Assembly (NCBI GenBank): GCA_963749655.1
Contig: CAVVOB010000038.1
Span: 118,940 to 182,939 of the forward strand
Source: Nitrospirota bacterium
Lineage (GTDB): Bacteria > Nitrospirota > UBA9217
Reading direction: 5' to 3'
Length of the DNA: 64,000 bases
The position numbers and the translations under genes are program-made. The notes below the pieces were generated by a model. It saw only the letters and a list, made by a program, of their open reading frames with translations, did not search any database and was not told where the DNA came from. Shown here in pieces: positions 18,265-31,614 of this stretch (positions are counted from its first letter, which is position 1; each line of letters opens with the position of its first letter).

Positions 18265-18323
18265 TGATATCACGCGGCTGACGCGCCGCTTTTGGCGCGT
18301 CGCAGTCGAGCGCCTGGTTGGAA
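18265..18323 (-). other. attC site with non-canonical GAT core
   Basis: TTCCAAC-caggcgctcgactgcgacgcgccaaaagcggcgcgtcagccgcgt-GATATCA. Confidence 0.8.
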
Positions 18324-18346
18324 TGCTTGCATGGTATAGAGACGGC

Positions 18347-18679
18347 TTAGACGTGAGCTAAGGCAGGTAATCTTTTTATCTTCTTTATCTCTTTTGCAGT
18401 TGATGAGTGGGTCACATGATATAAATCCCACGCTAACTGTAAATTAAGCCAAAACTGCGCCTCCATGCCGAATAGCTTCTCCAGACGAAGTGCTGTGTCA
18501 GGGGTAATCCCCCGCTTCGCATGAATCAGTTCATTAACGCGAGGGTATGAAACTCCGAGCTTCTCCGCCAACTCGCTCTGTGTTATTTTCAGAGGTTTGA
18601 GAAACTCCTCCAACAGCATTTCGCCGGGATGCGTCGGCGGACCATATTTAGGTATGCGTACCATCTTCTTCTCCTTCAC
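18347..18679 (-). CDS. higA: HigA antitoxin
   Basis: PTHPGEMLLEEFLKPL..HTH..ITPDTALRL..FWLNLQ. Confidence 0.93.
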   Translation of the reverse strand: MKEKKMVRIPKYGPPTHPGEMLLEEFLKPLKITQSELAEKLGVSYPRVNELIHAKRGITPDTALRLEKLFGMEAQFWLNLQLAWDLYHVTHSSTAKEIKKIKRLPALAHV

Positions 18680-18682
18680 TCT

Positions 18683-18976
18683 TTAGTGGTAATCGGTAAT
18701 TTCCACGTTTTCCACGCCATCATCCGTCCACACAAAACAAACGCGGAACTGATCGTTAATCCGTATGCTGTGCTGACCTTTCCGATCATGCTTAAGGGCT
18801 TCCAGTAAATTCCCCGGTGGAATTTTTAATGACTCCAAGGAAATGACCCCATTTAACTGGTCGAGCTTACGCTGTGCTATCCGCCAGATTTGATGCGGAC
18901 AAGTTTCTCTGGCTTCTTTGGTGTTTCTTCTGTCAAAGATGTCCTCAGTGCCCTTGTCGCGAAACGATTTTATCAC
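18683..18976 (-). CDS. higB: HigB (RelE-like) toxin
   Basis: MIKSF..PPGN.LEAL..DRKGQHSIRINDQFRVCFVW..EITDYH; toxin gene precedes antitoxin. Confidence 0.93.
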   Translation of the reverse strand: MIKSFRDKGTEDIFDRRNTKEARETCPHQIWRIAQRKLDQLNGVISLESLKIPPGNLLEALKHDRKGQHSIRINDQFRVCFVWTDDGVENVEITDYH

Positions 18977-19333: not shown

Positions 19334-19393
19334 ATACAACGCGCCGGTCACGCGCCGCCTTCTGGCGCGTCGCTGTGGACCGGCAGGTTAACC
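19334..19393 (-). other. attC site
   Basis: GGTTAAC-ctgccggtccacagcgacgcgccagaaggcggcgcgtgaccggcgc-GTTGTAT; the upstream gene's stop lies within R''. Confidence 0.9.
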
Positions 19394-19813
19394 GTACCAT
19401 TCGCTGATTTTGCAGTGTTCGATACCCAATTGCCGTAACGTCTTCAGTGCCGTTTCTGATACGATTAAAGTGAAGTTGCTACTCAGGCCGAAATCATGGA
19501 GCCCGGCACGTCCTTCAATTTGAATCCATTGGAAGGCTGGAAGCTCCTTATTTCCGTAGAGTTCATTAAATTCTTCTGACTTTGAGGTCTTAACCTGTGC
19601 CAAACGATAACCAGTTAGCTTGGTTTCTTCCAATGTCGTCGCAGCTGCTTCTGTAATAATGAAGCATGGAAATGACTCAAGAAGCACGTCCCCCGACCAA
19701 CCATCAAGTTGGTAGTGTAATCTTTTCACTTTGGGAGGATGAATCGAAACATCGGCATCGGTACTATCGCCCCACCCACCCGCAACTTCTGGTTCAAGTT
19801 CAAAGTATTTCAT
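19388..19813 (-). CDS. Hypothetical cassette protein (possible immunity-type)
   Basis: 141-aa ORF ending in attC R''. Confidence 0.75.
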   Translation of the reverse strand: MKYFELEPEVAGGWGDSTDADVSIHPPKVKRLHYQLDGWSGDVLLESFPCFIITEAAATTLEETKLTGYRLAQVKTSKSEEFNELYGNKELPAFQWIQIEGRAGLHDFGLSSNFTLIVSETALKTLRQLGIEHCKISEWYG

Positions 19814-20201: not shown

Positions 20202-20230
20202 GTTACCTTCCTATTTCTAAAGAAGTTAAC

Positions 20231-22019
20231 GAGTCTGTAGAAAAAGTCGATTTGAAAAGCATCATTGATCCCGGGTAGCAAGTTTTTATCAGGGTGAGTT
20301 CTTGATTTGAGCTTTTGCGTGATTCAATCGGTCCTGGTCGATCTCGCTACTGCATTTTCTTTCTCTTTCTGCTTCCCGTTATCTCAACTTTCCGCGAACC
20401 CGAACCCGTATCGGTGCACTTTGAGCAGGTTGTGAACCACACAGTATAGCCGCCACTGGGTGCTTACCTTCTTTTTCCCTCTGAGACTGAAGCGGTCGAG
20501 ACCGAGACTCGATCGGATGTCAGCAAATACCGGTTCGACCGTCGCCATCCTTCGTCCGTAGATCAACTTGCCGGCCACCGAGTCTATCTTCTCTCGCATC
20601 TTCTGCGTGAAGGTCTTTTCTTGTTTGTTGGTCCTGCCTGTGAAATGGGAGAACTGGCGCGTTTCGGTCACCTCGGGGTTCTTCAGGCACTGCGCGCGCT
20701 GCGTGCACGGGATACAGTCTCGTTTTGTTCCGTGATACTTGATCGCATGGAGTCCATGATGATTCGCGTTGCCGCATTTGTACATCCGTTTCCCGGCCGG
20801 GCAGGTGCAGAAGCTTTTATCCGGGCTCACCGTGAAGTCTCTCGGCTGGAAGACGATCGGCCGGTCGAATTTCTTTGCGATCTCTTTATTGAACCTCTCC
20901 TTATGCCTGTCGGCCGTAGCATATCGGGGATCGCGATGACGGAACTTGTTATCCGCGATGTATGCGTCGATGCCTTCTTCGATTACCATCTGCACGTTCA
21001 TTGCGGAATGAAAACCGGCATCGGTCGTCAGTTGGGTCTTTTTGAAGATGTCCTCTTCTTTTCCGATTGTCTTGAAGTTTCCCCGGGTCCCTTCGACCAT
21101 GGGTTTAAGTATTGCAGTCTCGGAGTCTCCGGTCGTATCGGCATGGACAACTACCTTGTGTTTGCTGTCCACCATGGCTACACCGTTGTAACCCTGGACT
21201 ACTCCGTGCGAAGTCATCATATTCGCGCTTTCGTTGTCGGTTATGTTGCTCTTCCTCGGCCCCTTGCTGCCGGGCTTGTCGTCGTTATCGTTCATGAAGT
21301 CTTTTATCTTTTTGATCTTCGCCTTGAGGGTGGCTATATACTGCTCTTCCTTCTCGATTACCGCGTGGTCGGTCTCGGTTTTGTCCCGTTCCTTATGCTG
21401 AGCGATCATTGCCTTGATCGCCTTCTCCATCTTTTCTTTTTTACGTCGAAGATCCTTTTTAGTTCCGCTCCATTCCTTTGAAGCGTTCGAAGGGAGCTTG
21501 CAGCCATCGATAGCGAACATCTCTTTGCCGATCAGGCCCATCCGGTCGCAGATAAAGAGTACTTCAAGGAAGAGCTTCACCGTCTCCTGGTCGTTCGATG
21601 AGATGAAATCGGCGATCGTGGTGAAGTGCGGCCGGGTGTCTGCTGAGAGGGCCATAAACACGACGTTCTCGTTGCAGCATTCGGCGATCTTCCGACTGGA
21701 GGTGATTCCTTTGGAATAGGCGTAAAGGACGATCTTGAGCATAATCCTTGGATCGTAAGCCGGTGCGCCAGTTTCGTCGTTCTTATAGCGGAGATCGAAG
21801 GCGGAAAGGTCGATTTCATTGTCGATAAGATAGTGGAGCGTATGTTCAAAAGTGCCGGGAAGGATCTGTTTGTCGAAGCTGAGCGGGATAAATTTGCCTT
21901 GGGAATAGTCGTACTCTTTGTACTTCGCCATACGCCTCCCGTGGGTGAGGGGTTTTTGTTCTTCAGAAGTGCGTTTAGATGGCGCCAGTATAGCATAAAA
22001 TGACTTTTTCTACACCTTC
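20231..22019 (-). mobile_element. IS1182-family insertion sequence, copy 1 (1789 bp)
   Basis: Imperfect terminal IRs GAAGGTGTAGAAAAAGTC / GAGTCTGTAGAAAAAGTC; flanked by AAC at 20228-30 and 22020-22. Confidence 0.92.
20384..21931 (-). CDS. tnp: IS1182-family DDE transposase
   Basis: GAPAYDPRIMLKIVLYAY..SSRKI, AIDG.K, TD.ES, DAGF, R..TVEPVF motifs. Confidence 0.92.
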   Translation of the reverse strand: MAKYKEYDYSQGKFIPLSFDKQILPGTFEHTLHYLIDNEIDLSAFDLRYKNDETGAPAYDPRIMLKIVLYAYSKGITSSRKIAECCNENVVFMALSADTRPHFTTIADFISSNDQETVKLFLEVLFICDRMGLIGKEMFAIDGCKLPSNASKEWSGTKKDLRRKKEKMEKAIKAMIAQHKERDKTETDHAVIEKEEQYIATLKAKIKKIKDFMNDNDDKPGSKGPRKSNITDNESANMMTSHGVVQGYNGVAMVDSKHKVVVHADTTGDSETAILKPMVEGTRGNFKTIGKEEDIFKKTQLTTDAGFHSAMNVQMVIEEGIDAYIADNKFRHRDPRYATADRHKERFNKEIAKKFDRPIVFQPRDFTVSPDKSFCTCPAGKRMYKCGNANHHGLHAIKYHGTKRDCIPCTQRAQCLKNPEVTETRQFSHFTGRTNKQEKTFTQKMREKIDSVAGKLIYGRRMATVEPVFADIRSSLGLDRFSLRGKKKVSTQWRLYCVVHNLLKVHRYGFGFAES

Positions 22020-22074
22020 AACACGGCGCTGACGCGCCGACGTTGGCGCGTCGCTGTCGAGCGCCAGGTTGGTA
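22020..22074 (-). other. attC site with IS inserted at the core GTT
   Basis: TACCAAC-ctggcgctcgacagcgacgcgccaacgtcggcgcgtcagcgccgt-GTT, then IS, then GTTAACT. Confidence 0.9.
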
Positions 22075-22092
22075 CTTGCATCTCTCTTTTAT

Positions 22093-23073
22093 CTACGCAT
22101 ATCCGGCCCATGCCGAAAGGATTTTCCCTGCTCTCTGCTTGCTGAATCCGCATTCGACTGCCGTGTCTAGCGTAGTTCTTATATCTGCCTCGCTTGGCTT
22201 GAAATTCGGACCAAAAGACCTGCTTACGATTCCCATTGCTTTAATTGTTTCTAGGTCTTCTGAGAGAAGTGATGCAGCGACTTCGCTTTCTATTATAGTT
22301 TTGTGCTTGCCGCCTGACTGTGCAAAAAATGGTATCCGTGCCATCAATGATAAACTACGCGCTTGTTCAAGTTGTTCAGCACCATCTGGCATTGCGTCGT
22401 TCCTAGACTTAATCAATGATGTTTCTAAGGTCTGTAGAATGTCCTGCTCTCGCTCAAGGTTTCCACCAACTGCGGCGGCTTCTTCAAGCATGTCTTGCGT
22501 CTCCTGCAATAGTGATAAAGCGTTAGCCACAGAACTATGCTGACTCATCGCTCGCATTTTATCGCTGCAAAAGGATTCGAACTTCTTCTTGTACTGCTTC
22601 ACGAACACAAGGTCCATTTCCTGTGCATCGAGGATTTCTTGAATTGTAATAATCCTGCGGTCAGCAGGAAAAAGCAGGTTCCCGTCTCTGCGCTGAAGTT
22701 GCCTTTCGTAGCAACCTGGGGCGTCGCTCCATACCTTTTCTTCTTCGGCCCAAGCACGTGAAAGCCTGTGCGCCGTGTTGACCGGCATATTTTCACCGTA
22801 TTTTTCGATAAGTTCCTGCATCGTTTGTTCGATATATGCGCGTTCTTCCGGCGACGCGTCTGCTCGCTTTACACAAATCGAATTTACTGATACAGTTTTT
22901 CCTTCGAGGGCACCTTTATCAACAACATCGTGCATTTGTCGAGAAATTTGTTTGCGCTCTTTTTCTACAAGTATTTTTACATGCTCTGCCTGCTCTTGCG
23001 TCAATGTCACGCCGGTATCGCGTTTCGAGAATAGATTGATCGCCGCTTTTATTAAGAAGCTACCAATTCCCAT
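22093..23073 (-). CDS. Hypothetical helical cassette protein
   Basis: 326-aa ORF with GAGGAG RBS right after the attC core. Confidence 0.8.
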   Translation of the reverse strand: MGIGSFLIKAAINLFSKRDTGVTLTQEQAEHVKILVEKERKQISRQMHDVVDKGALEGKTVSVNSICVKRADASPEERAYIEQTMQELIEKYGENMPVNTAHRLSRAWAEEEKVWSDAPGCYERQLQRRDGNLLFPADRRIITIQEILDAQEMDLVFVKQYKKKFESFCSDKMRAMSQHSSVANALSLLQETQDMLEEAAAVGGNLEREQDILQTLETSLIKSRNDAMPDGAEQLEQARSLSLMARIPFFAQSGGKHKTIIESEVAASLLSEDLETIKAMGIVSRSFGPNFKPSEADIRTTLDTAVECGFSKQRAGKILSAWAGYA

Positions 23074-23087
23074 GTCATATCTCCTCA

Positions 23088-23151
23088 GACTAATGCGGCG
23101 GTAAGTCGCGGTCCCCGTAGGGGCCCGTCGATCTTGACTGCCTTGATCTCT
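23088..23151 (-). other. attC site with variant cores (R'' AGAGATC, R' ATTAGTC)
   Basis: aaggcagtcaagatcgac-gggcccctacggggacc-gcgacttaccgccgc has typical attC arm architecture. Confidence 0.7.
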
Positions 23152-23220
23152 CCGCGCTTTTTGCGGAGAAGGCAGTTCCGCGACTTACCGCCGCAATCTT
23201 TCCGCGATTGCGAAGCGCGG

Positions 23221-23278
23221 AGAGATCGATTGGCATCACTAGCGGCTGTAAGCCGTCCGGTGGATGCCATGGTTATGC
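23221..23278 (-). other. attC site with GAT core
   Basis: GCATAAC-catggcatccaccggacggcttacagccgctagtgatgccaatc-GATCTCT; R'' complements the cassette start GTTATGT. Confidence 0.8.
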
Positions 23279-23349
23279 AATTAGTTGGCTTCTTTACCAG
23301 TTGCAAAGCAATAGATGCCCCCTTGTTTCATAGCAAGCATAGATTTTCT

Positions 23350-25359
23350 TTAAAGTGTCTTCAGTTTATCAATGACAGTCGGATTTCGGCTAAGTTGCTC
23401 AATTGTTTTTTGCACAAATGTATTTAGTATCACGCCGTCGTACTTCCGCTGTTCCGCTTCCTTAACTTCATGTGCCGCTCTGAGAATTTCACCGGACTTA
23501 GCTTTCTTATTGACATGAATCATCCTATCTTGATCCGCTTGCTTCAAAATTTCTGACTGTATCTTCCAAATCTCTTTCCAGATATCTGACTTGCTCCATA
23601 ACGCCTCAAGCGTTTGATCAATTAAGCTCTGGAGTCGTCGATGGGCACGCAATTTCTTCAGCAACACTACGGGATCGATCGGTTTTGGCTGCGGTAGAGG
23701 TGGGAAGGGTGTATTACCTGTACCTGGGATTTGAGGCAACTCCACGGTGATATCTATGAGACCCCGTTCGATCAAATCGTGTAAGGCTCTCTCAAGTCTC
23801 GCTACCTTAGCAGCATCGAAAGCGTAGATTGTAACGGCCGTTTCGACATAGATTATCGATTTTCCATAGAAAAAGAACTGACCTTTTGCGACTGTGTTGA
23901 ATTTATCTACAGATTGAAAATTGAACTCTACTGCTGTATCATTGTCATAGTCAAAAGGGTTATTTGTGAATCCATCGAATATTTTCTGACCATCAACAGA
24001 TAGCGTCGATAAGGTAATATTTTGTGCTGTTGTTTGCCCATGCTTGATTATCACAACGCCCGATGTTCTAGTTGGGGGGGCGAGATTTCTCTCAACGAAT
24101 ACAGCAAAAATTGGGGATGTAATGTTACCGAGACGGTATGAATAGGTCACTTCAACGTAAGCCGTGCTTAAGTCGTCATGTCCCCTTCGAACATCAATAG
24201 GATTATTTACGATTCTGATCCAACGAAACGGAGCGTCAAGTTGTAGAATTGCGGCTGTTGTTGGATTCTGGTCTTTAATGAACAGATCAGCATCAGTGAT
24301 GCCATCATAACCTACTGGTGGACCACCACCTGTCTTATGAACATATGGGTAACAGTCAATAGCTGGTACTGCATCAACATTAGTCGACCGACAATAGTTA
24401 TCGTCATCCAGCAATCGCACGGTAACCGTGGAGAGAGCTCGGGGCAGTTTGAGATTGACGGTGGTACTTCCCGTTCTACTAGAGCACTGTTTGTTGTCTC
24501 TGCCCTTGGGAGATAATTCTGACTTAGCCTGACCGGGTCCCTTGTTGTAATTCCAGTTACTACCATCAACTTGGACGCAGAAGTAGGGGATGAAACAGCA
24601 TTGCCAGGAAAAATCCAGATCATAGTCGGCCACGGTTGCTGAACTAATCCCGGTTTGTTCGCACTTGTTAATTTTCACCAGTGTGCCGTCTTGAAAAGCA
24701 TAACTTCTGTCCTTGTCGTCGAGAAAGAAGCCATGGTATTCGTCTCCCCTATTGTGTCTAAGCCGAATATTACTTTGATCACCATTTAAATAGAATGTAA
24801 GACATACATCGTCATCATTAAAGTAAATTGGATCATAAATGAAGATAGTTACGTGGGTATCCGCGCCGCTCGGTGCTCCCTCCCCTTGGATTATTGACCT
24901 CTCCTCATATGCATATGCGACAACCCGATGGCTGTCTTCAAGGTGCTTAAGATTGACATCATTGGATGACGCAATGAGTGTAAGTGTTACTGGCTTAGAT
25001 TTATCGAGCAGATCCTTAACGCTTGGCCATTCCTGTTGTGTCATGTGCCCTTGGCTATGCTTGCGATTCCAATGACCTAAATCTGGACTTTCTTGCCATC
25101 GATAGATTTTCCAAAGGGTACTTGCAGGTAAGGAATTTACCTGCGTATCCCATATCTCATTATAAAGGGGGTCTCCCTCCGGAGGTTGTGGTATGTTTCT
25201 ATCGATAGGGATTGCATTATAGAATCTCTGCAGTGCTTTCCAGCACATTCCTCCACAAAATCCCATATCTAAGGTGACAGTATCAAAGACAAATGATTTT
25301 CTCCAAGAATTACCAAAAGGCCAGCCATGAATTGATGGTCTAAAGTATGTCGTTATCAT
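23350..25359 (-). CDS. Large cassette protein with putative papain-like Cys protease N-terminal domain
   Basis: FCGGM (Cys), SHRVVAY (His), IYDP (Asp) spacing; GGAGG RBS. Confidence 0.7.
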   Translation of the reverse strand: MITTYFRPSIHGWPFGNSWRKSFVFDTVTLDMGFCGGMCWKALQRFYNAIPIDRNIPQPPEGDPLYNEIWDTQVNSLPASTLWKIYRWQESPDLGHWNRKHSQGHMTQQEWPSVKDLLDKSKPVTLTLIASSNDVNLKHLEDSHRVVAYAYEERSIIQGEGAPSGADTHVTIFIYDPIYFNDDDVCLTFYLNGDQSNIRLRHNRGDEYHGFFLDDKDRSYAFQDGTLVKINKCEQTGISSATVADYDLDFSWQCCFIPYFCVQVDGSNWNYNKGPGQAKSELSPKGRDNKQCSSRTGSTTVNLKLPRALSTVTVRLLDDDNYCRSTNVDAVPAIDCYPYVHKTGGGPPVGYDGITDADLFIKDQNPTTAAILQLDAPFRWIRIVNNPIDVRRGHDDLSTAYVEVTYSYRLGNITSPIFAVFVERNLAPPTRTSGVVIIKHGQTTAQNITLSTLSVDGQKIFDGFTNNPFDYDNDTAVEFNFQSVDKFNTVAKGQFFFYGKSIIYVETAVTIYAFDAAKVARLERALHDLIERGLIDITVELPQIPGTGNTPFPPLPQPKPIDPVVLLKKLRAHRRLQSLIDQTLEALWSKSDIWKEIWKIQSEILKQADQDRMIHVNKKAKSGEILRAAHEVKEAEQRKYDGVILNTFVQKTIEQLSRNPTVIDKLKTL

Positions 25360-25392: not shown

Positions 25393-25451
25393 ACATAACG
25401 CGGGCGTGAGGGGCGCGTCTTTAGCGACCCTCTCGACGCGCTTTGTTAGTA
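25393..25451 (-). other. attC site
   Basis: TACTAAC-aaagcgcgtcgagagggtcgctaaagacgcgcccctcacgcccgc-GTTATGT. Confidence 0.88.
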
Positions 25452-25951: not shown

Positions 25952-25971
25952 TGTATTTTCTCCAGACTAAC

Positions 25972-27760
25972 GAGTCTGTAGAAAAAGTCGATTTGAAAAG
26001 CATCATTGATCCCGGGTAGCAAGTTTTTATCAGGGTGAGTTCTTGATTTGAGCTTTTGCGTGATTCAATCGGTCCTGGTCGATCTCGCTACTGCATTTTC
26101 TTTCTCTTTCTGCTTCCCGTTATCTCAACTTTCCGCGAACCCGAACCCGTATCGGTGCACTTTGAGCAGGTTGTGAACCACACAGTATAGCCGCCACTGG
26201 GTGCTTACCTTCTTTTTCCCTCTGAGACTGAAGCGGTCGAGACCGAGACTCGATCGGATGTCAGCAAATACCGGTTCGACCGTCGCCATCCTTCGTCCGT
26301 AGATCAACTTGCCGGCCACCGAGTCTATCTTCTCTCGCATCTTCTGCGTGAAGGTCTTTTCTTGTTTGTTGGTCCTGCCTGTGAAATGGGAGAACTGGCG
26401 CGTTTCGGTCACCTCGGGGTTCTTCAGGCACTGCGCGCGCTGCGTGCACGGGATACAGTCTCGTTTTGTTCCGTGATACTTGATCGCATGGAGTCCATGA
26501 TGATTCGCGTTGCCGCATTTGTACATCCGTTTCCCGGCCGGGCAGGTGCAGAAGCTTTTATCCGGGCTCACCGTGAAGTCTCTCGGCTGGAAGACGATCG
26601 GCCGGTCGAATTTCTTTGCGATCTCTTTATTGAACCTCTCCTTATGCCTGTCGGCCGTAGCATATCGGGGATCGCGATGACGGAACTTGTTATCCGCGAT
26701 GTATGCGTCGATGCCTTCTTCGATTACCATCTGCACGTTCATTGCGGAATGAAAACCGGCATCGGTCGTCAGTTGGGTCTTTTTGAAGATGTCCTCTTCT
26801 TTTCCGATTATCTTGAAGTTTTCCCGGGTCCCTTCGACCATGGGTTTAAGTATTGCAGTCTCGGAGTCTCCGGTCGCATCGGCATGGACAACTACCTGGT
26901 GTTTGCTGTCCACCATGGCTACACCGTTGTAACCCTGGACTACTCCGTGCGAAGTCATCATATTCGCGCTTTCGTTGTCGGTTATGTTGCTCTTCCTCGG
27001 CCCCTTGCTGCCGGGCTTGTCGTCGTTATCGTTCATGAAGTCTTTTATCTTTTTGATCTTCGCCTTGAGGGTGGCTATATACTGCTCTTCCTTCTCGATT
27101 ACCGCGTGGTCGGTCTCGGTTTTGTCCCGTTCCTTATGCTGAGCGATCATTGCCTTGATCGCCTTCTCCATCTTTTCTTTCTTACGTCGAAGATCCTTTT
27201 TAGTTCCGCTCCATTCCTTTGAAGCGTTCGAAGGGAGCTTGCAGCCGTCGATAGCGAACATCTCTTTGCCGATCAGGCCCATCCGGTCGCAGATAAAGAG
27301 TACTTCAAGGAAGAGCTTCACCGTCTCCTGGTCGTTCGATGAGATGAAATCGGCGATCGTGGTGAAGTGCGGCCGGGTGTCGGCGGAGAGGGCCATGAAG
27401 ATGACATTCTCATTGCAACAGTCGGCGATCTTCCGGCTGGAGGTGATCCCTTTGGAGTAGGCATACAGGACGATCTTGAGCATGATCCGGGGATCGTAGG
27501 CCGGAGCGCCGGTTTCGTCGTTCCTGTACCGGAGGTCGAATGTCGAAAGGTCGAGATCGTTGTCGATCAGATAGTGGAGGGTGTGCTCGAAGGTGCCGGG
27601 GAGGATCTGTTTGTCGAAGCTGAGCGGGATGAACTTGCCTTGGGAATAGTCGTACTCTTTGTACTTCGCCATACGCCTCCCGTAGGTGAGGGGTTTTGAT
27701 GTATCAGAAGTGCGTTTCGATGGCGTCAGTATAGCACAAAATGACTTTTCCTACACCTTC
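25972..27760 (-). mobile_element. IS1182-family insertion sequence, copy 2 (1789 bp)
   Basis: Same IRs and length; AAC at 25969-71 and 27761-63. Confidence 0.92.
26125..27672 (-). CDS. tnp: IS1182-family transposase
   Basis: 515 aa, near-identical to copy 1. Confidence 0.92.
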   Translation of the reverse strand: MAKYKEYDYSQGKFIPLSFDKQILPGTFEHTLHYLIDNDLDLSTFDLRYRNDETGAPAYDPRIMLKIVLYAYSKGITSSRKIADCCNENVIFMALSADTRPHFTTIADFISSNDQETVKLFLEVLFICDRMGLIGKEMFAIDGCKLPSNASKEWSGTKKDLRRKKEKMEKAIKAMIAQHKERDKTETDHAVIEKEEQYIATLKAKIKKIKDFMNDNDDKPGSKGPRKSNITDNESANMMTSHGVVQGYNGVAMVDSKHQVVVHADATGDSETAILKPMVEGTRENFKIIGKEEDIFKKTQLTTDAGFHSAMNVQMVIEEGIDAYIADNKFRHRDPRYATADRHKERFNKEIAKKFDRPIVFQPRDFTVSPDKSFCTCPAGKRMYKCGNANHHGLHAIKYHGTKRDCIPCTQRAQCLKNPEVTETRQFSHFTGRTNKQEKTFTQKMREKIDSVAGKLIYGRRMATVEPVFADIRSSLGLDRFSLRGKKKVSTQWRLYCVVHNLLKVHRYGFGFAES

Positions 27761-27763
27761 AAC

Positions 27764-29552
27764 GAGTCTGTAGAAAAAGTCGATTTGAAAAGCATCATTG
27801 ATCCCGGGTAGCAAGTTTTTATCAGGGTGAGTTCTTGATTTGAGCTTTTGCGTGATTCAATCGGTCCTGGTCGATCTCGCTACTGCATTTTCTTTCTCTT
27901 TCTGCTTCCCGTTATCTCAACTTTCCGCGAACCCGAACCCGTATCGGTGCACTTTGAGCAGGTTGTGAACCACACAGTATAGCCGCCACTGGGTGCTTAC
28001 CTTCTTTTTCCCTCTGAGACTGAAGCGGTCGAGACCGAGACTCGATCGGATGTCAGCAAATACCGGTTCGACCGTCGCCATCCTTCGTCCGTAGATCAAC
28101 TTGCCGGCCACCGAGTCTATCTTCTCTCGCATCTTCTGCGTGAAGGTCTTTTCTTGTTTGTTGGTCCTGCCTGTGAAATGGGAGAACTGGCGCGTTTCGG
28201 TCACCTCGGGGTTCTTCAGGCACTGCGCGCGCTGCGTGCACGGGATACAGTCTCGTTTTGTTCCGTGATACTTGATCGCATGGAGTCCATGATGATTCGC
28301 GTTGCCGCATTTGTACATCCGTTTCCCGGCCGGGCAGGTGCAGAAGCTTTTATCCGGGCTCACCGTGAAGTCTCTCGGCTGGAAGACGATCGGCCGGTCG
28401 AATTTCTTTGCGATCTCTTTATTGAACCTCTCCTTATGCCTGTCGGCCGTAGCATATCGGGGATCGCGATGACGGAACTTGTTATCCGCGATGTATGCGT
28501 CGATGCCTTCTTCGATTACCATCTGCACGTTCATTGCGGAATGAAAACCGGCATCGGTCGTCAGTTGGGTCTTTTTGAAGATGTCCTCTTCTTTTCCGAT
28601 TATCTTGAAGTTTTCCCGGGTCCCTTCGACCATGGGTTTAAGTATTGCAGTCTCGGAGTCTCCGGTCGCATCGGCATGGACAACTACCTGGTGTTTGCTG
28701 TCCACCATGGCTACACCGTTGTAACCCTGGACTACTCCGTGCGAAGTCATCATATTCGCGCTTTCGTTGTCGGTTATGTTGCTCTTCCTCGGCCCCTTGC
28801 TGCCGGGCTTGTCGTCGTTATCGTTCATGAAGTCTTTTATCTTTTTGATCTTCGCCTTGAGGGTGGCTATATACTGCTCTTCCTTCTCGATTACCGCGTG
28901 GTCGGTCTCGGTTTTGTCCCGTTCCTTATGCTGAGCGATCATTGCCTTGATCGCCTTCTCCATCTTTTCTTTCTTACGTCGAAGATCCTTTTTAGTTCCG
29001 CTCCATTCCTTTGAAGCGTTCGAAGGGAGCTTGCAGCCGTCGATAGCGAACATCTCTTTGCCGATCAGGCCCATCCGGTCGCAGATAAAGAGTACTTCAA
29101 GGAAGAGCTTCACCGTCTCCTGGTCGTTCGATGAGATGAAATCGGCGATCGTGGTGAAGTGCGGCCGGGTGTCGGCGGAGAGGGCCATGAAGATGACATT
29201 CTCATTGCAACAGTCGGCGATCTTCCGGCTGGAGGTGATCCCTTTGGAGTAGGCATACAGGACGATCTTGAGCATGATCCGGGGATCGTAGGCCGGAGCG
29301 CCGGTTTCGTCGTTCCTGTACCGGAGGTCGAATGTCGAAAGGTCGAGATCGTTGTCGATCAGATAGTGGAGGGTGTGCTCGAAGGTGCCGGGGAGGATCT
29401 GTTTGTCGAAGCTGAGCGGGATGAACTTGCCTTGGGAATAGTCGTACTCTTTGTACTTCGCCATACGCCTCCCGTAGGTGAGGGGTTTTGATGTATCAGA
29501 AGTGCGTTTCGATGGCGTCAGTATAGCACAAAATGACTTTTCCTACACCTTC
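27764..29552 (-). mobile_element. IS1182-family insertion sequence, copy 3 (1789 bp, tandem with copy 2)
   Basis: Appears identical to copy 2; separated from it by AAC only; AAC at 29553-55. Confidence 0.9.
27917..29464 (-). CDS. tnp: IS1182-family transposase
   Basis: Same protein sequence as copy 2. Confidence 0.92.
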   Translation of the reverse strand: MAKYKEYDYSQGKFIPLSFDKQILPGTFEHTLHYLIDNDLDLSTFDLRYRNDETGAPAYDPRIMLKIVLYAYSKGITSSRKIADCCNENVIFMALSADTRPHFTTIADFISSNDQETVKLFLEVLFICDRMGLIGKEMFAIDGCKLPSNASKEWSGTKKDLRRKKEKMEKAIKAMIAQHKERDKTETDHAVIEKEEQYIATLKAKIKKIKDFMNDNDDKPGSKGPRKSNITDNESANMMTSHGVVQGYNGVAMVDSKHQVVVHADATGDSETAILKPMVEGTRENFKIIGKEEDIFKKTQLTTDAGFHSAMNVQMVIEEGIDAYIADNKFRHRDPRYATADRHKERFNKEIAKKFDRPIVFQPRDFTVSPDKSFCTCPAGKRMYKCGNANHHGLHAIKYHGTKRDCIPCTQRAQCLKNPEVTETRQFSHFTGRTNKQEKTFTQKMREKIDSVAGKLIYGRRMATVEPVFADIRSSLGLDRFSLRGKKKVSTQWRLYCVVHNLLKVHRYGFGFAES

Positions 29553-29608
29553 AACGCGCGCCTGACGCGCCGCCGTGTGGCGCGTCGCTGTCGAGGCGCA
29601 GGTTGGTT
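29553..29608 (-). other. attC of first cassette with IS inserted at the core GTT
   Basis: AACCAAC-ctgcgcctcgacagcgacgcgccacacggcggcgcgtcaggcgcgc-GTT, IS, GTT, IS, GTTAGTC. Confidence 0.9.
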
Positions 29609-29632
29609 CTCGCCTTTTTGGGCAGGCTACTA

Positions 29633-30175: not shown

Positions 30176-31614
30176 ATGAAAAGCATACATCCGGAAATCC
30201 TCGCGCGTTTTGATAACATTCTGAAAATACGGCAACTTCCTTTTCCTGTGCGTCCCGATTACCGGAAATGGCTTAGGTACTTTCTGGATTTTCAAGCCAA
30301 ATATCCGCAGCCCGGGGAACGGTCGGATCAGGTCCGGCGTTTCTCTGAAAAACTCCGGTCAAAGGGGCAGACTGAAACGCAGGTACGGCAGGCGGCGGAT
30401 GCCGTATCGCTTTTTTTCGCGTCTCAGCAAGAGGCGCCTGTCGCGCCTGCATCGACCCGATCGGTGACTGTCCCTCATACTGTCGTTTCAATCGCCGCGG
30501 AACAATCGCGCACAGAAGGCCTCGTTGTGTCGTCTGGTGGGAGGGTGCCCGGTATGGTCTGCGACCCGCCCGGGTCGCCGGTTCCTGATGAACACATCAT
30601 GCGTCGCAAGGGCCGGTTTGATGATTGGCGTTGTCTGAAAAAAACAGGGTACCCTGCCTGGGACGCAATCATCGCCTCTCTTGCCGATGAGATCAAAACG
30701 AGGCATTACTCCAGAAAAACGCTCCAACACTATGCAAACTGGACCAGAAAATTCCAGAGCTATCTGTCGCATAAAGATCCGGCCCTGCTTTCGCCACAGG
30801 ACGTGAAGTGTTACCTTACCTATCTTGCAGTTCAGTGCAAGGTGTCCTCGTCGACGCAGAATCTGGCATTCAACGCATTGCTGTTCCTGTACCGGCATGT
30901 TCTGAAAAAGGATTTCGGAAATCACAAGGACATTCCCCGAGCAAAAAAGTCCACCTATGTTCCGGTAGTGCTCTCCCGCGATGAAGTCCAGGAGGTTCTT
31001 GCACGACTGGGACAGCCGTATCAACTTATCGCCAAGCTGCAGTACGGCTGCGGACTGCGTCGTTTTGAAGCGGTGAAGGTGCGCGTGAAGGACTTCAATT
31101 TCGATGCGGGCCTGCTCACGGTCAAGGGGAAAGGCGGCAAGAGCCGGGCAGTGCCGCTCCCGAACAGGATCTTGCCTGAATTGCTCGCCCAACTGGCATT
31201 TGTGAAAAAGGTGCATGCCGACGACCTGTGCTGCCGGTTACGCAGGGGTGTTTTTGGAAGACCAATTGGAAAGGAAGTATCCGAACGCGCCCCAGGGAGT
31301 TTCAATGGCAATGGTTCTTCCCGCAGGAATCATTAACGGTCGTGGCATCGTCCGGGGAAAAGCGACGCTATCACGTACATGACTCGCGGTTTCAGGATGC
31401 GATGTATTTTGCTGTTAAAAGAGCCCAGCTCACCAAGCGCGTAACTACACATACGCTTCGGCACTCTTTCGCCACGCACCTCCTGCAGGCGAACTACGAT
31501 ATTCGCACGATCCAGGAAATGCTCGGCCACTCGGATGTCAGGACGACGATGATCTACACGCATTGCGTTCCGAGCAGGACGGCGAAAGAGAGAAAGAGCC
31601 CGCTTGATTTCTGA
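30176..31614 (+). CDS. intI: Integron integrase, long N-terminus type (two apparent +1 frameshifts near 31228 and 31291)
   Basis: [29 protein letters not shown], restored IntI insert [56 protein letters not shown]. Confidence 0.92.

Follow-up and report, generated by a model that had tools for sequence, protein, structure and literature searches.

An ORF-less integron cassette of Nitrospirota with an inverted, internally deleted copy of itself as cargo

The 64,000-nucleotide stretch of DNA analysed here (hereafter the window; positions 118,940–182,939 of contig CAVVOB010000038.1, assembly GCA_963749655.1, Nitrospirota bacterium) contains a chromosomal integron, the cassettes of which are read leftwards, on the minus strand. 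One of these cassettes, a 133-bp unit at 23094–23226 that contains no open reading frame (ORF), is the subject of this study. The integron integrase gene intI lies at 30176–31614 on the plus strand and consists of two overlapping frames, 30176–31336 and 31228–31614. It matches TIGR02249 in two pieces, with 183.3 bits for profile positions 2–188 and 135.5 bits for positions 209–313 (cut-off 265), and is therefore split by a frameshift, which is either genuine or an assembly error; Pfam recognises Phage_int_SAM_4 and two halves of Phage_integrase. With its integrase gene split, the array is possibly frozen at the present time. Model R2, a covariance model derived from the attC site of the ORF-less cassette (23088–23151), identifies five further minus-strand attC sites in the array that adjoins intI, with scores of 15.9–30.1 bits, at 29549–29615, 25396–25447, 22016–22077, 19334–19396 and 18265–18326, the latter being the last recognisable attC of the array. 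The ORF-less cassette is situated between an upstream cassette with an ORF of 669 aa (23350–25359) and a downstream cassette with an ORF of 326 aa (22093–23073), both on the minus strand and without a Pfam or NCBIfam match. The ribosome-binding site of the 326-aa ORF, at 23081–23086, starts 7 nt past the crossover point.

The first-pass annotation of the window had described, between two attC sites, an 83-bp unit with inverted ends and internal repeats antisense to the adjoining attC, and all of these repeats are present: a perfect repeat of 18 nt (I1; 23094–23111 and 23178–23195), a perfect repeat of 15 nt (23145–23159 and 23213–23227), one of 8 nt (23137–23144 and 23169–23176) and one of 7 nt (23149–23155 and 23163–23169). 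An arm of 18 nt was reached in none of 500 dinucleotide shuffles of 23040–23380, the shuffle maximum being 16. The 83-bp unit and the adjoining attC together form a single cassette on the minus strand, which starts with the first base past the upstream crossover, G(23227)|AT, and ends with A(23094), directly before |TTAGTC. These limits are the limits of conservation in related copies, and among the near-identical copies of genome G057 divergence begins exactly outside them. The 15-nt inverted ends, which were compared with those of dispersed repeats such as miniature inverted-repeat transposable elements (MITEs) or the REPIN type of repetitive extragenic palindromes, are the R′ and R″ boxes of this cassette.

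Read in the direction of the cassette, the first element is helix P1 (23196–23226), in which the 5′ end (23213–23226, the remainder of R′ and an extension) pairs with an R″-like arm (23196–23209) that ends in ATT. This inverted repeat (I4) of 14 nt is 86% complementary and has the apical loop GCGAAGC on the bottom strand. Next comes an antisense arm of 50 nt (23146–23195), an inverted and internally deleted copy of the cassette. It comprises a bulge-free antisense of the attC L′ arm and of the last base of the cassette (23178–23195; the 5′ strand of helix P2, repeat I1, 100% complementary), an antisense of the start of L″ (23169–23176; helix P3) and an antisense of the R″ extension (23163–23169; helix P4), the latter two corresponding to inverted repeats I7/I8. 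The canonical attC site of 64 bp (23088–23151; R2 score 75 bits, E 2.8e-18) closes the cassette and is composed of R″ AGAGATC (23145–23151), L″ (23125–23142), an apical hairpin (23113–23123), L′ (23097–23111) and R′ ATTAGTC (23088–23094), the last six bases of which belong to the next cassette. It is thus built as an imperfect R″/R′ and L″/L′ hairpin, with an R″ box that is complementary to the 5′ end of its own cassette. L″ contains three single-base bulges, which in the window are T, T and G on the bottom strand and which in 59 related copies occupy fixed columns. The cassette boundaries coincide with the G|TT crossover position, for which the window has the variants G|AT (5′) and A|TT (3′).

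The two attC sites that were proposed to flank the 83-bp unit are not equally well founded. The right-hand site is the canonical attC just described, confirmed by its R2 score and by covariation (see below). The left-hand site, a putative attC of the 669-aa cassette at 23227–23278 (minus strand), has an AAC box (23272–23278) that complements the start of that cassette at approximately 25393–25398, an R′ box formed by G(23227) and the first bases of the ORF-less cassette, and a hairpin in the minimum-energy fold of both strands; R2 gives no match to it at E≤10 in the window scan, and its identity as an attC is only plausible.

The cassette belongs to a family. A blastn search shows that 23088–23229 is kept as one unit of about 140 nt, with 74–91% identity, in 23 of the 63 other genomes of the order. 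An alignment of 14 copies, with compensatory changes in several helices, preceded a covariance model of 148 positions and 40 pairs (R1), which matches the window cassette with 158.4 bits and has matches in 37 of 64 genomes of the order (G000 included), representing 15 of 19 genera. Up to 13 matches occur in one genome (G002), and several copies can be present within a single array. In the window's own genome no second copy is found, the only matches being the self match and its arms, with all other matches at E>0.08. When the phylum was sampled evenly, R1 had matches in 15 of the 27 genomes that belong to the window's family and in 7 of the 123 that belong to other families. Exact 20-mers were also scanned for in 185,579 species, each represented by one genome, which yielded 22 loci, 15 of them in Nitrospirota metagenome-assembled genomes (MAGs) and with an R1 match; the seven proteobacterial loci lack an R1 match, have coding-like sequence and were treated as chance. 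Altogether 66 sources gave 79 R1-aligned matches, i.e., 76 sense copies and 3 weak antisense echoes that were left out of the counts. The median identity between copies is only 49–52%, and truncated and decayed copies are common among the relatives. A search of Rfam 15 (E≤10) returned only chance matches, the best overlapping ones being plant microRNA hairpin models with E-values of 0.54 and 2, far below their gathering scores. In all these comparisons the related genomes are dependent samples, so that controls based on shuffling overstate significance.

The distribution of the family also decides whether the cassette is real. The window derives from a MAG of 4.27 Mb in 39 contigs (86.6% complete, 5.8% contamination), and none of the listed public sequencing runs, among which there is no RNA run, contains more than 0.10 of the sampled words of the window, which might raise the suspicion of an assembly or fold-back artefact. 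Four public runs yielded only short contig pieces of relatives (88–99% likeness), none of which spans the whole stretch, and in two of these runs (X1 and X4) the pieces cover parts of the antisense arm. An assembly fold-back is excluded, because the 75 other sense copies, from 31 other assemblies, are independent and share the same, covarying architecture. An artefact is accordingly hardly conceivable, and the cassette is neither an artefact nor a one-off fossil.

With the family at hand the unusual core triplets can be explained. The sequences GATCTCT and AGAGATC, which the first-pass annotation had singled out as mutually complementary cores in place of GTT and AAC, are located exactly where related copies have GTTCTCT (at the 5′ junction) and AGAGAAC (in R″). 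They are R′ and R″ boxes in a T>A / A>T variant, and the second, R″-like arm has changed along with them, reading ATT in the window and AAT in the nearest relative, L032. The 5′ triplets of the 76 copies are GTT (42), GAT (13), ATT (8), AAT (3) and others (10). After removal of three copies with short regions, 17 of 73 copies, including that of the window, have an A at the second position of this triplet; nine of the 17 carry the compensating T in both R″-like arms and three more in one arm. At the 3′ junction ATT is found in 39 of the 76 copies, GATT (one extra pair) in 13 and GTT in 10, from which it is evident that the R′ box ATTAGTC, earlier regarded as a variant, has the triplet that is the norm in this family. 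The window copy and L032 are 90% identical and differ at approximately 13 positions, about half of which, as read off the alignments, fall in three compensated sets, i.e., the core triple and two P2 pairs. A second GAT junction is present in the window at the array attC 18265–18326, which ends with G|ATATCA ahead of a gene for a 580-aa beta-helix protein.

Two alternative folds of the cassette are conserved. In the five-helix fold, consisting of P1 to P4 and the attC apex (P5), 92.7% of the alignment cells are paired, compared to 64.7% after shuffling and 31–49% when the partners are slid by 1–3 columns, and 39 of 40 pairs have changed on both sides; these values were measured on the R1-fitted alignment, which favours the R1 fold. 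In P1 all 8 model pairs covary. P2, formed by the bulge-free antisense segment together with the attC L′ arm, the last base of the cassette and the TT beyond it, comprises 18 pairs, with 94.8% of the cells paired and changes on both sides in 17 pairs. All pairs of P3 (93.9% of cells paired) and P4 (92.0%) covary. The alternative fold combines the bulged attC hairpin with a long hairpin of the 5′ end and R″, and on the same R1-fitted alignment shows 78.8% paired cells versus 63.5% after shuffling. In a structure-blind MAFFT alignment of the attC parts of 59 copies, with 17 of the 76 copies left out as decayed or redundant, the bulged attC hairpin is paired in 86.5% of the cells versus 68.7% after shuffling, and 11 of 13 L-box pairs covary. 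Mismatches in the attC L-box comprise 70 G·T on the bottom strand versus 45 on the top strand. In the window copy, as in 28 of the 72 other copies evaluated, all 9 positions compared between R″ and the cassette 5′ end match. Since both folds covary, the L′ arm has two conserved partners, one with three bulges, as is typical of attC, and one that is perfect.

The antisense arm is an inverted copy of the cassette itself. It starts directly after the AA/AT of the R″-like box and stops directly before the C of the true R″ box. Its reverse complement opens with the first 14 bases of the cassette and closes with its last 18, and lacks only two stretches, one being part of R″ and the other the bulged arm together with the apex. 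Of the 50 bases that align with the remainder of the cassette, 48 are identical in the window copy, and across the family this self-identity is at least 85% in all 76 copies, with a median of 96%, as calculated from gapped global alignments, which flatter identity. The element can thus be described as a mini-cassette that consists of an attC only and that has, nested within its R″ box at AA|C, an inverted and crippled version of itself. This confirms the earlier view that its cores are R′ and R″ boxes and its cargo is antisense to its own attC. On the opposite strand AA|C reads G|TT, a motif at which integrases cross over. There are also minimal forms without an insert, four of which (L115, L116, L118 and L119), belonging to the same attC subfamilies, were found among 16 inspected R2 matches outside R1 elements; ordinary gene-cassette attC sites of the same class are also among these 16. 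The minimal forms are attC-only units of about 80 nt, in which the 5′ end and R″ form a short hairpin, with a loop of the GCGNAGC type, ahead of the L-box, and two of them directly follow an attI-like sequence.

The insert probably arose by an integrase-type insertion in reverse orientation, because the inverted copy has exact cassette boundaries and is located at AA|C. Cassette insertion by integrases at G|WT positions that are not part of att sites is a known process, according to the available text of bioRxiv 10.1101/2022.09.11.507474. The first-pass annotation had considered the repeats as a possible fossil of template-switch synthesis, relevant to the formation of cassettes and attC sites. 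This idea has to be recast: template switching is not expected to respect cassette boundaries, and the conserved family in many copies is not the relic of a single event.

Several indirect signs from sequence comparison point to mobility of the cassette, which may be recombined by an integron integrase. Six copies in genome G057 are 98.5–100% identical and have different flanks, and copies from different genera are up to 95% identical. When the flanks are read by eye, approximately 50 of the 76 copies directly follow an attC-like hairpin, nine directly follow a shared attI-like motif ending in CTTG|TT or CTGG|TT, and one follows another copy; a crude energy filter for an upstream attC (≤ -12 kcal/mol) was passed by only 22 of 76. 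At two of the attI-like loci (L055 and L076) an N-terminal remnant of intI is found about 180 nt away. A tblastn search with the window IntI detected such remnants near only four of the fetched loci (L019, L043, L055 and L076), the neighbouring upstream ORFs at the other attI-like loci being unrelated genes, so that the designation attI-like is based on the shared motif.

Some copies have a composite structure or unusual neighbours. L070 (2813–2957) is a hybrid that has the R″–L″ half of an ordinary array attC in place of the 5′ hairpin of the element, and suggests that an attC and the element have recombined or have been joined by a deletion. At L072 (G002:C1, approximately 550106–550377) a GAT-type and a GTT-type element of different subfamilies are arranged head to tail without a spacer. 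The downstream flanks of L042, L043, L065, L071 and L082 consist of units of 10–35 nt followed by an attC that begins with CCAAC; these short units are gene-free mini-cassettes of another type. The window array also contains three identical copies, each of about 1.79 kb, of an insertion sequence (IS) of the IS1182 family, located within 25969–29552 and 20228–22019, with two copies in tandem. The transposase has 515 aa and matches NF033551 with 278.9 bits. The insertion point of each copy lies immediately behind the GTT of an attC R′ box, and the GTT recurs at the far end of the copy, so that the element looks like an IS that targets integron crossover sites. At L063, where the ORF-less element occupies 2001–2151, the 13 nt between its A|TT and the next G|TT are identical to the right end of this IS and could represent either a solo IS end or the footprint left by an excision. 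Another cassette inside the window array encodes a HigB-like toxin together with a helix-turn-helix antitoxin (18347–18976).

To understand at which level the conserved folds act, the strand preference of the departures from Watson-Crick pairing and of the loops was analysed. Counted on the top strand, 86 G:T and 85 A:C departures are present among 2896 cells, and the lack of a G:U excess argues against a selected RNA fold. On the bottom strand, 52 of the 76 copies have the sequence GCGNAGC in the P1 loop and 60 of the 76 have C-GNA-G at the attC apex; on the top strand neither sequence is present at these places in any copy. GNA triloops are unusually stable in DNA. From the absence of a G:U excess, the strand-specific GNA loops and the bottom-strand preponderance of G·T in the L-box we infer that it is the DNA that is constrained, most likely in its bottom strand, which is the strand used by integron integrases.

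In line with this, the earlier suggestion of a structured RNA that affects the 326-aa gene is not supported. In such a case the element would be transcribed from a cassette promoter and would function as leader at the 5′ end, as processing site or as small RNA, with the 326-aa gene or the array as its target. The position of the element, 7 nt upstream of the next ribosome-binding site, would be suitable, the helices are stable on the top strand as well (minimum free energy -49.1 kcal/mol with DNA parameters), and the accessible parts of PMC11014356 and PMC8876359 describe ORF-less cassettes elsewhere that encode promoters or small RNAs. Against this, neither a promoter-like site (including a sigma-70-like one) nor a terminator-like site is found in 23088–23229 by a consensus scan, no curated Rfam 15 model matches above chance, G:U pairs are not in excess, the loop conservation is of the GNA type and confined to the non-transcribed strand, and the sequence beyond the 3′ junction differs in every copy, which means that the element is not tied to one gene. 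An RNA function is for these reasons improbable. Other identities were considered and dropped, i.e., a retron (the 326-aa protein has no reverse transcriptase domain), a riboswitch, a terminator (none is present in the element) and a small ORF (indels in the loops break any reading frame).

The competition between the two folds was analysed with ViennaRNA, using DNA parameters and the bottom strand of 23080–23240. On both strands the fold of minimum energy is that with five helices. For the bottom strand the ensemble energy is -55.7 kcal/mol and becomes -46.9 kcal/mol when the canonical attC pairs are forced, corresponding to a probability of 7e-7 for the canonical hairpin; for the top strand this probability is 3e-5. 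When 23160–23200 is removed, as had been proposed in the first-pass annotation, the bottom-strand value rises to 0.40, which is close to that of 0.42 for the attC alone. Furthermore, 63 of the 76 copies keep at least 12 of the 18 P2 pairs in the minimum-energy fold of either strand. As far as the available text of PMC5371416 (Loot et al. 2017) goes, attC sites with pfold values of 3e-3 and 8e-6 gave no detectable excision of the flanked cassettes, 6% of the sites of chromosomal integrons have pfold values of 1e-5 to 1e-7, and cassettes of 60 bp are lost without integrase, probably by slippage.

On the basis of these data we propose, with a probability of about 0.5, that the cassette is a mobile, self-damping selfish element. 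The inverted copy, being devoid of the bulge-bearing arm and the apical loop, cannot act as an attC, but is a perfect complement of the attC L′ arm, the junction base and the first bases of the cassette, and also of part of R″ and of the start of L″. Once the DNA becomes single-stranded, above all the bottom strand, the element is predicted to fold into the five helices, which would sequester its own attC and likewise, on the upstream side, the crossover box of the neighbouring attC; the calculated advantage over the recombinogenic hairpin is about 9 kcal/mol. The expected consequence is a strong damping of integrase-mediated excision and integration at both boundaries. Such damping could prolong the residence of a tiny and easily lost cassette that offers no benefit to its host, the neighbouring cassettes being clamped only incidentally. 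The idea of a structural lock that freezes the neighbouring cassettes, as formulated in the first-pass annotation, is thus retained as far as the folding is concerned; the many copies and their frequent attI-like adjacency speak against an absolute lock.

A number of points weigh against this proposal. Equilibrium folding ignores the binding of integrase and of single-strand-binding protein (SSB), as well as the order in which the strand is exposed at the replication fork. A strict lock is difficult to reconcile with the number of copies in one genome, with the occurrence of near-identical copies at several sites and with the attI-like adjacency. The intI gene in the window is frameshifted, so that recombination possibly no longer takes place there, and R2 does not recognise the putative attC on the upstream side, the crossover box of which is supposed to be sequestered. 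The deletion limits of the inverted copy vary somewhat between subfamilies. Per helix, the balance of G:T and A:C departures is mixed, P1 favouring the bottom strand by 43 to 25, and P2 and P3 favouring the top strand by 33 to 22 and 17 to 7, respectively. In addition, the complementarity between the two halves could be maintained by hairpin-templated correction or by repeated re-creation instead of selection.

The latter point leads to the possibility that the composite is a by-product without any function. In this scenario the integrase inserted the cassette backwards into the G|TT that is presented by the R″ box on the other strand, perhaps several times, deletions crippled the guest, the composite moves by means of the attC of the host copy, and complementarity is kept by recurrent re-creation or by quasi-palindrome correction during replication. 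Such an origin agrees with the exact cassette boundaries of the guest at AA|C, with the attC-only minimal cassettes of the same attC subfamilies (L115, L116, L118 and L119), with the frequency of decayed and truncated copies, with the symmetry of the G:T and A:C departures and, as far as the available part of bioRxiv 10.1101/2022.09.11.507474 shows, with known integrase insertion at G|WT outside att sites. A complete lack of function is nevertheless rather unlikely: the halves of one copy are in the median 96% alike, compared to 49–52% between copies, about half of the differences between the window copy and L032 occur in compensated sets, and the strand-specific GNA loops suggest selection on folding. 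Another explanation assigns the opposite role to the antisense arm, namely that of an internal guide that is colinear with the joined ends of the cassette, so that the element would be a self-splinting mini-circle in which mobility is promoted and not damped. On the bottom strand P1 would stack on P2 without a linker, by which the two crossover points meet and precise excision, by integrase or by slippage, is favoured; the excised single-stranded circle of 133 nt would persist as a stable, mostly double-helical rod until it is re-integrated. Indeed, the R″-like arm and the antisense L′ arm together form an uninterrupted complement of the joined ends (L′ and the last base, followed by the first bases and the extension), the base opposite the last base of the cassette covaries (pair 68:293; T:A in 39 copies, C:G in 25), in the xAT copies the arm follows the 5′ end of the cassette itself and not the 3′ flank, and 100 of the 133 bottom-strand nt are paired in the minimum-energy fold of the circle. 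The multi-copy spread and the attI-like adjacency would fit a high mobility, and small cassettes can be lost without integrase, as stated in the accessible text of PMC5371416. The splint is doubtful all the same, because this geometry follows automatically from any inverted self-copy, and because the integrase is thought to require the bulged L-box, which is hidden in the rod (the probability of the attC fold in the circle is 3e-11). The junction of a circle would read the same as the antisense arm, and circles can therefore not be revealed by sequencing reads.

Self-damping remains the preferred reading, and a bolder one can only be put forward tentatively. The family might represent a minimal selfish integron replicator with a natural two-state single-stranded DNA switch, in which case its nested copy would be the first natural record of a backwards insertion of a cassette, by an integron integrase, into the R″ box of an attC. 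The switch itself would alternate between the rod, in which the crossover points are aligned and the 133-nt circle is protected, and a second state in which the bulged attC is exposed for integration. If true, reverse insertion into R″ boxes would constitute a route to new non-coding cassettes and to new core triplets (GAT/ATC).

Cassettes are usually discussed as carriers of genes, and the role of attC folding in their turnover, as well as the origin of cassettes, are open questions. The family described here is a natural and phylogenetically replicated test case, with about 76 variants in which an attC is confronted with a perfect antisense copy in the same cassette, and with a graded series that runs from ordinary attC sites through attC-only mini-cassettes to self-nested forms. 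It makes testable the tuning of excision by a competitor, the tolerance of G|AT with a co-changed R″ and reverse insertion into R″ boxes. The integron arrays of uncultured Nitrospirota hold proliferating gene-free cassettes, which annotation pipelines would report as empty spacers or doubled attC sites. For Nitrospira, the available text of PMC9024848 mentions two clusters of attC sites lacking integrases (CALINs) in one genome. A cassette carrying an inverted copy of itself, proliferating attC-only cassettes or a compensated GAT/ATC core were not found described in the full-text literature searched, with subscription journals and supplements outside its scope.

The closest parallels among described systems are the ORF-less cassettes of Vibrio, Treponema and Xanthomonas, which likewise possess their own attC and no ORF, are mobile in arrays and sometimes occupy the first cassette position. 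According to the accessible parts of PMC11014356 and PMC8876359 these act as promoters or small RNAs, whereas the present cassette has no promoter-like site, and all that it carries is an antisense version of the attC of the same cassette, the pairing with which is conserved. In the low-pfold attC sites of sedentary chromosomal integrons, including some Vibrio cholerae repeats (VCRs), a non-recombinogenic fold is likewise more stable and excision drops (PMC5371416, available text). In those sites the competitor resides inside a long attC, whereas here it is a separate inverted copy that forms the cargo and also covers the upstream crossover box.

Insertion at attG or other secondary sites resembles the present case in that crossover takes place at G|WT; the window copy and 16 of 72 other evaluated copies use G|AT or A|AT, and the nested copy is located at a G|TT that is presented by the R″ box on the opposite strand. 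The attG events were described for genomic sites, as far as the available text of bioRxiv 10.1101/2022.09.11.507474 extends. An ATC R″ that matches a GAT R′, and backwards nesting of a cassette in its own R″ box, were not found in the literature searched. More distant parallels exist as well. In the forked attP hairpin of the CTX phage, in REPINs and bacterial interspersed mosaic elements (BIMEs), and in the guide pairing of IS200/IS605, single-stranded DNA brings together inverted half-sites or ends by intramolecular pairing. The likeness implies neither an Xer, RAYT or TnpA partner nor membership of any of these systems. The copies of the cassette family described here appear to be situated at integron crossover points and not to be scattered between genes.

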